A program made the position numbers and the translations under genes. The notes beneath the pieces were generated by a model, which worked only from the letters and a program-made list of their open reading frames with translations, had not been told where the DNA came from and searched no databases. A DNA stretch of 48,566 nucleotides from a virus (taxonomy: Duplodnaviria; Heunggongvirae; Uroviricota; Caudoviricetes): positions 1-48,566 of IMG/VR virus record IMGVR_UViG_2636415673_000004; one strand, 5' to 3'. Of the stretch, positions 34,878-38,824 are shown in pieces; within the stretch, counting starts at the first letter, position 1, and each line of letters begins with the position of its first letter.

Positions 34878-35527
34878 GCCGCCATCTCCCTGACCAGTTT
34901 TTCCGCCTGCTGGCGAACCTGCGCCAGAAACGCCTCACCACATGCCTCAAGTTCATCGCGCCCGATGTAGCTGATTGCCGGTCCCTTCCAGGTCTTGTCG
35001 AAAACAGCAATAGCACCAGCGAAGAAAGCGCCTGTCGGCACCTGCTTCTCATCTTTCGGGATAAACCAGGCAGGCAGTTCAAAACCAATACGCCCGCGAA
35101 TAAAAGCAATATGATCTGCATCTTCCGGCCACCACACTTCGCTGGTGGCAGCTTTGATCAGGAAAACATAGCGCCCGCCTTTATCACGCATGGCACTGGC
35201 ATGTTTCATGATGTAACGCATGCCGGTGATGTATTGCCCCTCATGCTGACTGGCGCGGCTGTATGGGGGATTACCAAAGGCAGCACCTTTAAGCTCCGCA
35301 AGACGTTCTGACCAGTCATGCGCCAGCGCGTTGTCTTCCGCCGTGTAATACGCGGCACATTTGGCGTTATCACCATCGGTAAACAGATCCAGAACAAACG
35401 GGCCAAACAGGGTGTTAATCCCCCAGAAAATGTTATCCGGCGTGCGCCACTGATCGCCCACTTCCTTCAGTTCATGGGCTGGTTTGTTCCGCAGTTCCAC
35501 CAGTGCCTGACAATATTTATTACTCAT
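34874..35527 (-). CDS. Phage-type DNA N6-adenine methyltransferase (about 217 aa)
   Basis: NPPY catalytic motif (GNPPYSR); ATG at 35527 forms a TAATG overlap with the upstream stop (ORF-track frame begins with GTG at 35560). Confidence 0.75.
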   Translation of the reverse strand: MSNKYCQALVELRNKPAHELKEVGDQWRTPDNIFWGINTLFGPFVLDLFTDGDNAKCAAYYTAEDNALAHDWSERLAELKGAAFGNPPYSRASQHEGQYITGMRYIMKHASAMRDKGGRYVFLIKAATSEVWWPEDADHIAFIRGRIGFELPAWFIPKDEKQVPTGAFFAGAIAVFDKTWKGPAISYIGRDELEACGEAFLAQVRQQAEKLVREMAA

Positions 35528-36021
35528 TAAGCCCCCACGTAATTCCCTGACAGATACCACTCTTCACCCGATGCAGCGCGCTTGCTGCTTTTCCGTAAGC
35601 ACCGCTCACGACGCGCCAGAAAATTGTTTCGTTCTGGCTGGGAGTGGCTTTCACGGAATGCCGCCATCCACACGGTTGCAGCACGACGAAATAAGCCCCT
35701 GGACTCCAGTTCTTCAGCCTGGCGGGTCAGGCACAAAATCACCCGGGGATCGTTAGTGCCGACATAGAAATTGCGCACAGGTCTGGTTTCACGAACTGGT
35801 TGTGGTTCCGGCTCCTGCGCTCTCTCAGTCAGGCGCGGGAAATGTCTGCGTGTATCTCCTTCACAACGGTGAGCCACACGCCCGCTCTGACGTAACTTGC
35901 TTGCTGACTGCAGTACGCGCTGCCGTGAGTAACCTGCAAAAGCATCCGCAATGTCTCCGGAAGTACACCCCGGATGGGCTTCAATGAATTTCTGAACGTC
36001 ATTCAAAAGACTCATGCTCAC
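35527..36021 (-). CDS. Hypothetical protein with PerC-like C-terminal region (164 aa)
   Basis: ELESRGLFRRAATVWMAAF...ERNNFLARRERCL resembles the PerC/Pch motif (LExRGLWRRAA); N-terminal half unassigned. Confidence 0.4.
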   Translation of the reverse strand: MSMSLLNDVQKFIEAHPGCTSGDIADAFAGYSRQRVLQSASKLRQSGRVAHRCEGDTRRHFPRLTERAQEPEPQPVRETRPVRNFYVGTNDPRVILCLTRQAEELESRGLFRRAATVWMAAFRESHSQPERNNFLARRERCLRKSSKRAASGEEWYLSGNYVGA

Positions 36022-36959
36022 CCCCTGAATCCTGCCGGGATCTGGCTGTAGTCCACATTGTCGTAACTGGCTTTGAAGTACGGGTCTTCGCGTTTTTCTG
36101 TGTACGTGCTGATGGACGGCGATAAGCGCAGGGAAAGCTCATCCCATTTTTCCCGCAGCTTCGACGGGCTGAGCACGTTACGGCACCAGAACGGATCGCG
36201 GCTGATGCGGCTGTACATCTCGCAGATTTGTTTGTGAGTACGACCATCCTGCACACACATCAGGCGAATTTCGTTTGCCCAGGCTGTCCAGTTCGGTTCT
36301 TTGGGACGAACCACCTCGCCGTCACATTCGGCGGCCTGCTCGTACAGGGCGATGATTTTTTTCCAGAGCCACTGTGCGCAGGTCAAATCATCCTGCGTTC
36401 CCCACTGGCACTTTTTAGGGCTGAATACAACCGCATCAGGATGGCGAGTTAAAAAATCCTGTTCAGCCGTCTGCGTGTCCGGTTGCGAAACGTCCGGACG
36501 AGAAGGTTTTTTATCTGACGGATCATATTTTGATTTTACTGACGGATCCCCGCCAGATTCTGACGGGTGAAAACCCGCTTTTTTGCCAGATTTCGACGCA
36601 TCAAATTTTGACGGGTCAGATTTTGATGCGTCAGATTTTGACGGGTCAGAATCTGACAGTTGAGAAAATGCCGCGGCCTGAAGCTTCGCAACGTTAAGCT
36701 GATAAACATTCGACGCATTACGGTTACCCTGGCGACGCGCCTTACGCGTTAACCAGCCTTCTGCTTCCAGCCGTGCAATAGCCGTTCTGACGGTACTCAT
36801 CCCCGCGCCAATCTGGCGGGCAATGGTTTCAATCGATGGCCAGCACACACCTTCGTCATTACTGAAATCAGCCAGGCGGGCCATAATTGCCACACTGGAT
36901 AATTTCATGCCTGACGCTGCGCAACCATCCCATACATAGCCGGTTAATTTAGTGCTCAT
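36018..36959 (-). CDS. Replication initiation protein (N-terminal HTH, repeat-encoded linker, C-terminal helical domain), 313 aa
   Basis: HTH region (SIETIARQIGAGMSTVRTAIARLEAEGWL); the SDPSKSDASKSDPSKFDASKS linker is encoded by DNA iterons; sits in the O position after cro/cII-like genes. Confidence 0.6.
   Translation of the reverse strand: MSTKLTGYVWDGCAASGMKLSSVAIMARLADFSNDEGVCWPSIETIARQIGAGMSTVRTAIARLEAEGWLTRKARRQGNRNASNVYQLNVAKLQAAAFSQLSDSDPSKSDASKSDPSKFDASKSGKKAGFHPSESGGDPSVKSKYDPSDKKPSRPDVSQPDTQTAEQDFLTRHPDAVVFSPKKCQWGTQDDLTCAQWLWKKIIALYEQAAECDGEVVRPKEPNWTAWANEIRLMCVQDGRTHKQICEMYSRISRDPFWCRNVLSPSKLREKWDELSLRLSPSISTYTEKREDPYFKASYDNVDYSQIPAGFRG
36510..36665. repeat. Iteron array (candidate replication origin) inside the replication gene
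   Basis: About 8 copies of a TGACGG(G/A)T-centred 15-bp unit at 15-24 bp spacing (for example ttttgacgggtcaga twice). Confidence 0.55.
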
Positions 36960-36968
36960 GACCGACCT

Positions 36969-37307
36969 CTATTTCCCTGAATTTACGACGAAACTGTTCG
37001 AGCGGGCTGAAGCACTCATGCTCATAGCCTTCGCGGAGGTAGATAACCCGTTGTGTTTCCGGTTCCCAACGAATGACTCTGACGGGTACTCCGTAGTGAT
37101 CTTTGAACCAGCGGTTAACTTGTCGCAAAGGACTGTCTCCTTCTGCCGGTTGAAATCACCCACAGCCCACTCAGCAAAGCTGTGGGTTACAATTTCCCTG
37201 TCACCTGGTACATTTACTGCATAGCAATACTCCACCTTCGCTTTTCCACCCGGTACAGGAAGCGCAATCAGTTGCGAGCGACGGTAGTGTGTTGTTAAAC
37301 TGTTCAT
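36969..37307 (-). CDS. Hypothetical ORF coupled to the CII-like gene; possibly frame-disrupted
   Basis: ATG overlaps the upstream stop (ATGA); N-terminal half looks protein-like, C-terminal half is low-complexity while an alternative frame encodes a better sequence. Confidence 0.35.
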
Positions 37308-38197: not shown

Positions 38198-38824
38198 ATG
38201 GAAACGGTTGGTCAGCGTATAAAAGCTCTGAGAAGGGTTACCAGAACGTCCCAGAAAGAATTGGGTAAATTTTGTGGGGTAAGTGACGTTGCTGTGGGGT
38301 ACTGGGAAAAAGACATCAATGTCCCTGGCGGGGAAGCACTTTCGAAATTAGCGAAGTTCTTTAATACGTCAATAGATTACATTCTTTATGGTGCTGAGTT
38401 TGAAGGCAAACTAGTCACAAACATGCGCAGAGTTCCTGTAATTTCGTGGGTTCAGGCTGGGCAGTTTACTGAGTGCAGGGCAGCAGAAGTGTTTAGTGAA
38501 GTGGACAAGTGGGTAGATACATCTTTAAAGATTGGTGATAACTCATTTGCATTAGAAGTTAAAGGCGACTCCATGACTAATCCTAATGGCCTCCCAACAA
38601 TACCAGAAGGTGCAACAGTGATTGTAGATCCTGATGCAGAACCTCGTCATGGAAAAATAGTCATTGCTCGACTTGATGGAACGAACGAAGCTACAGTAAA
38701 AAAATTAGTCATCGATGGTCCTCAAAAGTTTTTAGTGCCATTAAATCCACGGTATCCCAACATCCCAATCAATGGTAATTGCCTGATCATTGGTGTAGTC
38801 AAAGGAGTTCAATACGAACTCTAG
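38198..38824 (+). CDS. cI: CI-type prophage repressor (HTH-XRE plus S24 LexA-like autopeptidase), 208 aa
   Basis: N-terminal HTH (QKELGKFCGVSDVAVGYWEKD); C-terminal S24 motifs GDSM (Ser) and a downstream Lys (ATVKKL). Confidence 0.85.
   Translation: METVGQRIKALRRVTRTSQKELGKFCGVSDVAVGYWEKDINVPGGEALSKLAKFFNTSIDYILYGAEFEGKLVTNMRRVPVISWVQAGQFTECRAAEVFSEVDKWVDTSLKIGDNSFALEVKGDSMTNPNGLPTIPEGATVIVDPDAEPRHGKIVIARLDGTNEATVKKLVIDGPQKFLVPLNPRYPNIPINGNCLIIGVVKGVQYEL

Follow-up and report, generated by a model that had tools for sequence, protein, structure and literature searches.

Two reading frames maintained across ymfM and a nested DUF4222 gene in an e14-like prophage

INTRODUCTION

Has a single phage gene been broken just upstream of a replication gene, or are two genes kept there in different frames of the same DNA? 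The question is raised by the ymfL-ymfM-DUF4222-O region of a Caudoviricetes sequence of 48,566 nucleotides (nt) (IMG/VR record IMGVR_UViG_2636415673_000004). This whole stretch is called the window here, and all coordinates refer to it; the region is read on the minus strand and belongs to a lambdoid prophage of the e14 type, of which it forms the immunity and early-right part. A preliminary description had noted a "frame discontinuity" at this point, where one open reading frame (ORF) is overlapped by another that opens at a TTG with a Shine-Dalgarno sequence upstream and stops inside the replication gene, and had left open whether one gene was split by a frameshift or a small gene lay hidden. 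On re-reading the sequence, the overlapping ORFs, their coordinates, the TTG, its Shine-Dalgarno sequence, and the stop inside the replication gene all hold.

Our results point to a conserved dual-coding stretch in the early-right operon of the prophage, in which the continuity of the ymfM frame would couple O to ymfL and ymfM. We put the probability of this reading at roughly 0.7. The "frame discontinuity" is a switch of the selected frame and not a lesion.

RESULTS

Arrangement of the overlapping genes

The features that carry the argument are listed below, with frame A denoting the ymfM frame and frame B the DUF4222 frame (SNP, single-nucleotide polymorphism; aa, amino acids).

37861-37304, minus strand: ymfL, CII-like regulator (Phage_CP76; Pfam PF06892, E = 1.4e-13; NCBIfam YmfL equivalog, E = 9e-50; RefSeq annotation of the identical stretch)
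ATG at 37307 to TAG at 36971-36969, minus strand: ymfM (frame A), 112 aa
37128-37307, minus strand: N-terminal domain of YmfM, frame A codons 1-60, recognized by tblastn conservation, stand-alone ORFs, and SNP pattern
36969-37127, minus strand: tail of YmfM, codons 61 to 112 of frame A with the TAG stop, corresponding to the +1 frame of the DUF4222 gene
37142-37137, minus strand: putative Shine-Dalgarno sequence AAGGAG of the DUF4222 gene, 8 nt 5' of its TTG, as read from the sequence
TTG at 37128-37126 to TAA at 36951-36949, minus strand: DUF4222-family gene (frame B), 59 aa (Pfam, PHROG, RefSeq)
36957-36971, minus strand: junction TAGAGGTCGGTCATG, with the frame-A stop within the GAGG Shine-Dalgarno sequence of the replication gene
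36959-36018, minus strand: lambda-O-like replication initiator with an HTH_36 N-terminal domain (Pfam HTH_36, E = 4e-11) and internal iterons

The ATG of ymfM and the TGA of ymfL overlap as ATGA. The ymfM and DUF4222 ORFs share 160 nt, with DUF4222 in the -1 frame relative to ymfM, and the DUF4222 ORF runs 20 nt past the ymfM stop and 11 nt into the replication gene.

The nested 59-codon ORF is a DUF4222 gene

The product of frame B matches Pfam family DUF4222 (PF13973) with an E value of 8.6e-19 and 67.3 bits (cut-off, 27), residues 2-53 aligning to positions 3-52 of the 53-position profile, and it matches phrog_1343 with an E value of 2e-34. RefSeq coding sequence WP_001250269.1 ("DUF4222 domain-containing protein") is this same ORF, and the protein is identical in e14 of Escherichia coli K-12. 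With a match of this strength, and with the same pair of ORFs recurring across the prophages of Enterobacterales, the arrangement is far beyond chance.

Our main sample comprised 48 loci, drawn from one genome per species for about 45 species, whose DUF4222 proteins are 67-98% identical to that of the window; phage loci were examined in addition. The start column of the DUF4222 gene in the 48 loci holds ATG 42 times, GTG 3 times, and TTG 3 times, and purine-rich GGAG-like motifs could be seen by eye, in the printed contexts, 5' of the start in most homologous loci. Between E. coli and Klebsiella, DUF4222 retains 88% amino acid identity, against about 44% for the frame-A tail over the same DNA. 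These data show that strong purifying selection acts on the 59-aa ORF and that it is a true gene of the DUF4222 family, with its own Shine-Dalgarno sequence and start. Such a gene is already catalogued and hence is ordinary in itself. Its AlphaFold2 model, with a predicted local distance difference test (pLDDT) score of 83.7, is a small beta-barrel of five strands plus a short helix; a fold search with this model returned generic KOW, Tudor, SH3-like, KorB C-terminal domain, and DUF1653 barrels, none at E ≤ 1e-3.

Annotation of the region is in conflict. The 112-codon ymfM ORF is unannotated in both RefSeq records that we inspected, one of which is an E. coli K-12 MG1655 assembly, and the feature names of the other sampled E. 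coli genomes include DUF4222 and lack ymfM. Some phage records and the ymfM literature annotate the 112-aa ORF instead, and the K-12 reference annotation lists ymfM as well. The two ORFs sit separately in PHROGs, and DUF4222 is also in Pfam and RefSeq. The inspected RefSeq records, made by the Prokaryotic Genome Annotation Pipeline (PGAP), thus keep DUF4222 and the literature keeps ymfM, when both frames appear to be real features.

YmfM consists of a conserved domain and a read-through tail

The YmfM protein of the window is identical to that of K-12 at 108 of 112 residues, and all four differences lie within the tail. It matches phrog_1170 over residues 1-112 (E = 2e-69), and phrog_20047 also matches. 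A tblastn search with the first 60 residues found identities of 60-62% in Klebsiella, 65% in Citrobacter phage phiNP, 51% in Pantoea, 41% in Providencia, and 38% in Hafnia. The N-terminal domain (N-domain) occurs alone, as an ORF of 59-65 aa, in Providencia, Hafnia, and Citrobacter phages; the free-standing genes of Providencia and Hafnia (59-63 aa) overlap the next gene by 4 nt, and in phiNP a rha gene lies between the N-domain and DUF4222. Fifteen diverse N-domains align as one family of ~55 aa with the motif MxSLT..QLR..PVxG..NH..VGDF, which in the window reads MNSLT..QLR..PVPG..NH..VGDF. No Pfam or NCBIfam match was found for the N-domain, the 15 diverse members included. Conversely, DUF4222 is found after rha or kilA-N genes with no N-domain nearby, and 111 phage records carry DUF4222, compared with 42 that carry the N-domain. 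Conservation of this kind shows YmfM to be made of a conserved N-terminal domain of ~55-60 aa followed by a read-through tail of 52 aa.

The modular occurrence of the two parts bears directly on the idea that the locus is a single gene that a frameshift mutation or a sequencing error has disrupted, its true product being a fusion of the N-domain to DUF4222. In-frame fusions of this kind do exist in the databases (P0150, P0178, P0184, and P0085), but each has a different junction, and they are mostly single metagenome or read-archive assemblies; we regard them as most likely indel errors or rare natural frameshift mutants. Fusion P0184 represents 14 sequences. The two-frame layout is present in 80 of 80 e14-like viral contigs, which disposes of the homopolymer error that the preliminary description had suggested checking for, and in every complete locus of the main sample (one of the 48 has a disrupted and one a contig-truncated DUF4222 frame). 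A megablast search found at least 80% of a 501-nt query in 2,003 E. coli genomes, a figure that measures nucleotide coverage and not reading frames. The DUF4222 start column, moreover, always holds ATG, GTG, or TTG, and other phages carry one module apart from the other. We therefore consider a broken gene extremely improbable, and a frameshifted pseudogene was rejected, given the two-frame layout in about 45 species and the sporadic occurrence of fusions. Of the two explanations originally offered, the hidden small gene has become a known one (WP_001250269.1), and the split gene has fallen away. Homologues with an uninterrupted frame A and the same C-terminus, which had been proposed as speaking against the discontinuity, do exist (111-117 aa in Klebsiella, Pantoea, and others), and the nested gene is nevertheless real; both frames are maintained, and these homologues fail to separate the two explanations.

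A fusion protein could in principle also be made by programmed -1 frameshifting from ymfM into the DUF4222 frame. The geometry permits it in the window, where frame B is the -1 frame of A and is open for 9 codons upstream of its start, as far as 37155, before a TGA at 37158-37156 closes it. Elsewhere it fares badly: just 2 of 47 loci have a canonical X_XXY_YYZ heptamer in register, 9 loci have a frame B that closes within 0-2 codons of its start on the upstream side, no conserved structure was found around the DUF4222 start, and a start codon is conserved there. We judge this mechanism highly improbable. A hairpin masking the ribosome-binding site was likewise dropped. In the window the AAGGAG pairs with a UCCUUU that precedes the TTG start, and the 101-nt region folds with a z-score of -2.6; RNAalifold on 31 diverse loci found no conserved pairs.

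The selected frame switches at the junction

Which frame is under selection can be read from population variation. A first scan of viral contigs returned only copies that were 97-98% identical, which were unsuited to divergence tests and were used for population SNPs; these near-identical contigs yielded 52 distinct e14-like DNA variants. Over the N-domain, 14 SNPs fall on the third position of frame-A codons, 6 on the second, and 2 on the first. Over the overlap, they fall on frame-B positions 3, 1, and 2 in the numbers 13, 1, and 0. The 52 variants encode 2 distinct DUF4222 proteins versus 22 distinct YmfM tails.

Structure prediction agrees in placing a change at the same point. The AlphaFold2 model of whole YmfM has a pLDDT of 52.6, too poor for a structure search; ten-residue blocks of the N-domain score 52-72, residues 67-112 fall below 50, and the tail is predicted to be disordered. 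The earlier impression of a ymfM ORF that looks like protein over its first half and turns low in complexity over the second is thus borne out: the junction marks a shift in tblastn conservation, in the distribution of SNPs, and in AlphaFold confidence.

Amino acid constraint on the tail was considered and rejected. Within the overlap, four-fold-degenerate DUF4222 sites have diverged to the same extent as such sites in the N-domain, saturating near 0.56-0.61, and because of this the amino acid sequence of the tail appears unconstrained. Its composition does depart from synonymous resampling, with 21% hydrophobic residues versus 30% expected and 54% Ser/Thr/Ala/Gly/Pro versus 44% expected.

The tail frame is kept free of stop codons

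What appears to be retained in frame A is its openness. In every complete locus, the +1 frame over DUF4222 is open for 52-54 codons and ends at a common stop site; over the same loci the +2 frame has 1-10 stops. To estimate how often the frame would be open, we resampled synonymous codons in every DUF4222 sequence according to local codon usage. The tail frame is open in 52 of 52 diverged sequences, for which the per-sequence expectation has a median of 0.053 (range, 0.02-0.17). For 11 mutually saturated lineages, chosen to differ pairwise at 50% or more of four-fold sites, the joint probability of openness is about 1e-13.7.

Codon choice in DUF4222 shows how the frame is kept open. Valine before a codon beginning with A is encoded by GTT 88 times and GTC 40 times (128 of 128), never by GTA or GTG; where Val stands in this context in ORFs that flank DUF4222 at these loci, GTA and GTG make up 48% (239 of 494) of its codons. 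The Val codons of DUF4222 that precede C or T include all four. Leucine before A or G is CTC or CTT in 72 of 72 cases. By parsimony on a neighbor-joining tree, V18 has undergone 12 changes, all T<->C, and 14 of 20 changes at context-safe Val and Leu columns involve purines.

DUF4222 genes in other surroundings served as controls. Those of phiNP-like loci, which follow rha, have 3-5 stops in the tail frame in 12 of 12 cases, and 23 Serratia-like loci with DUF4222 downstream of rha or kilA-N contain 3-6. No stop is present in the 20 Serratia-like loci where another frame-A ORF runs into DUF4222.

These results need to be weighed against the possibility that DUF4222 alone matters, the N-domain gene having lost its stop, the tail being translated by accident, and the openness reflecting DUF4222 composition and shared ancestry. 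The free evolution of the tail and the phylogenetic relatedness of the loci fit that account, as do YeP3-like loci, where 20 of 33 are open in the +1 frame despite the earlier stop of the N-domain. We consider it improbable all the same, given codon limits that vary with the neighboring base (Val is written GTA or GTG ahead of C or T, never ahead of A), 12 independent T<->C changes at V18 with no purine, openness in all 11 synonymous-saturated lineages, and 3-6 stops in close relatives after rha or kilA-N. The stop of the N-domain gene and the start of DUF4222 overlap as ATGA in YeP3-like phages, and the other 13 of the 33 loci carry single +1-frame stops at five different positions.

The pattern of codon use and controls shows that selection has, on this sequence evidence, removed stop codons from the tail frame: DUF4222 never employs a synonymous codon that would introduce one there. 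Both frames of the overlap are evidently maintained, frame B by amino acid conservation and frame A by stop codon avoidance.

Junction with the replication gene and proposed coupling

The frame-A stop lies 9 nt before the ATG of the replication gene in 44 of 48 loci and in frame with that gene in all 48. It is TAG in 27 loci and TAA in 21, and it is embedded in the replication gene's Shine-Dalgarno sequence (TAGAGG or TAAAGG). The position of the DUF4222 stop relative to the same ATG varies, from +11 to +92.

From the ATGA overlap with ymfL, the 4-nt overlaps of free-standing N-domain genes, and the fixed position of the stop, we infer that frame-A continuity serves the coupling of O. The selected trait would be uninterrupted translation and not a particular tail sequence. 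Ribosomes would enter ymfM by coupling from ymfL, pass over the nested gene, and terminate 9 nt short of the O start codon, on the Shine-Dalgarno sequence of O, whose expression would in this way be coupled to ymfL and ymfM; DUF4222 would be made separately, from its own, weaker start. Read-through of this kind probably hands translation on from the ymfL-ymfM pair to O.

The chief rival to coupling is that the tail is needed by YmfM itself. True overprinting would make the 52-aa tail a functional disordered C-terminus of the YmfM division inhibitor, serving perhaps as a linker, a degradation tag, or an interaction segment, with the full-length protein needed and coupling to O not involved. Several observations are in keeping with this: the frame is kept open, its composition has moved away from hydrophobic residues toward Ser/Thr/Ala/Gly/Pro, its predicted disorder is typical of younger overprinted frames, in ST64B-type phages the frame continues, linker-like, into the Rha domain, and in the variant viral contigs L184-L192 a nested frame-A ORF has its own ATG. 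We nonetheless find overprinting rather unlikely. The tail shows no amino acid conservation beyond that imposed by DUF4222, its four-fold sites being saturated and 22 variants existing among e14-like copies alone; the N-domain proteins of Providencia, Hafnia, and phiNP function without a tail; and tail function would not require a fixed 9-nt distance from stop to ATG.

Other points weigh against the preferred reading, that continuity of frame A couples O to the genes upstream. The rationale for coupling is drawn from geometry only, and our literature search found no ribosome-profiling paper that mentions ymfM and no proteomic data for either product. The sampled loci are related, such that the counts are not fully independent. 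In some loci the +1 frame is open with no N-domain ORF reading through it; the 20 open YeP3-like loci, where the N-domain stops on the DUF4222 start, are of this sort, and L184-L192 carry only the short ATG-initiated nested ORF in that frame. The frame of ST64B-type phages continues without a stop over more than 330 codons, crossing two small-RNA genes and entering rha, and a simple model of termination at O does not cover these phages. The shift in tail composition, finally, could mean selection on the tail protein itself.

The exceptional layouts have further features of their own. Viral contigs L184-L192 and L207-L246 have variant layouts; in L184-L192 the N-domain lies in the third frame, and the +1 ORF over DUF4222 is roughly 58 codons long. 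Phages of the ST64B, Stx1a, and PhiR40 types carry isrK (RF01394) and a C4 antisense RNA (RF01695) between DUF4222 and rha or ant, at 1712-1788 and 1813-1900 in L137 (ST64B) and likewise in L138, L139, and L134. The ORF that contains both RNAs is annotated as a single protein of 340-385 aa ("Sb41," "Rha," or "Ant") and reads through DUF4222 in the +1 frame.

Other features of the locus

Two further genes complete the immunity part of the region:

38198-38824, plus strand: LexA/cI-like repressor
38099-37899, minus strand: cro-like gene

Relatives of the replication gene are annotated "DNA replication protein O" or "primosomal protein" in related phages. Inside the O-like gene, at 36516-36661, iteron-like repeats (TGACGGGTCAGATTT-type) recur five to six times at a spacing of 15 nt, many of them in inverted pairs, and encode a repetitive DPSKSDASKSDPSK segment of the O-like protein; by analogy with lambda, they probably constitute the phage origin. 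An Rfam scan of this region of the window gave only spurious sub-threshold matches (mir-5880), caused by the iterons. An 11-bp perfect hairpin (CCCACAGCUUUGCUGAGUGGGCUGUGGG) lies at 37158-37187 on the minus strand, inside the N-domain coding sequence and just 5' of the nested gene. Directly downstream of the replication gene is an ORF at 35527-36021 (minus strand, 164 aa, GTG start), whose counterpart is annotated as a PerC-family regulator (yfdN); the RefSeq genome that matches best flags it as a pseudogene because of an internal stop.

DISCUSSION

Consequences for ymfM and SfiC

The results matter beyond gene annotation because E. coli K-12 has a division inhibitor, sfiC, that has long been sought and for which ymfM is the sole candidate. 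It has been reported as the e14 gene behind the SOS-inducible SfiC filamentation phenotype, and its 112-aa product has been reported to inhibit Z-ring formation; the pBAD24 clone held "the open reading frame" of ymfM, and the constructs hold both frames (bioRxiv 10.1101/2020.11.19.390815). The 339-bp ymfM ORF includes the DUF4222 Shine-Dalgarno sequence, the TTG, and 53 of its 59 codons, which is the whole Pfam domain. An earlier library clone spans ymfL' through ymfN' and so both genes, the UTI89 screen mapped only a 1.8-kb region, and deletion of ymfM would also remove the DUF4222 start. The published clones would carry, and the deletion would remove, DUF4222 as well, and SfiC activity is therefore not assignable to one product: the active product could be the N-domain, full-length YmfM, or DUF4222. 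Our literature search found no paper on the ymfM/DUF4222 overlap or one linking ymfM with an overlapping gene.

New here are the evidence that both frames are maintained and the recognition that a published phenotype could belong to either of two products. The locus also offers a natural and well-controlled example of selection for the continuity of an ORF without selection on its protein sequence. One may go further and propose that the +1 frame is a selected "translation bridge" to O (to rha in ST64B-type phages) and that SfiC activity may belong to the ~60-aa N-domain or to DUF4222; we offer this combined proposal tentatively, at somewhat less than even odds.

Comparison with known systems

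The one studied member of DUF4222 is RgdR (ECs1581), a 99-aa protein of cryptic prophage CP-933C in enterohemorrhagic E. coli that is reported to contain the domain (PMC3378721, PMC10877973). It activates LEE1 (LEE, locus of enterocyte effacement) and type III secretion and represses motility (PMC3378721, PMC10877973). Its DNA binding is weak and non-specific and its effects on regulation are pleiotropic (PMC10877973, PMC3378721), and its RGD tripeptide is required for activation of LEE (PMC3378721). The 59-aa protein of the window resembles it in matching the DUF4222 profile over its whole length, with a small beta-barrel as predicted fold. It differs in having no RGD and in its setting: RgdR is longer and lies in a P4-like element, whereas e14-type DUF4222 is always immediately upstream of a replication gene.

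The closest relative of the locus as a whole is ymfM of K-12 e14 (b1148), with its 108 of 112 identical residues and the same gene order of cI-like gene, cro-like gene, ymfL, ymfM, and O. That gene was published as a single 112-aa gene, whereas here only residues 1 to ~60 are a conserved domain.

Nested out-of-frame genes and coupling through a stop in a Shine-Dalgarno sequence are both familiar in phages. The Rz/Rz1 pair of lambda likewise has one whole gene contained in a longer one, out of frame with it, and keeps both frames. By comparison, the nested gene here is the older and strongly conserved one, and the host frame crosses it as a sequence-free read-through; the overlap is also partial, with DUF4222 running past the ymfM stop into O. 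Translationally coupled operons, for their part, use termination-reinitiation at ATGA or stop-in-Shine-Dalgarno junctions, and the present locus has one of each, between ymfL and ymfM and between ymfM and O. It would differ from them in one respect that is unusual, namely, that the coupling ORF would traverse a whole independent gene in another frame.

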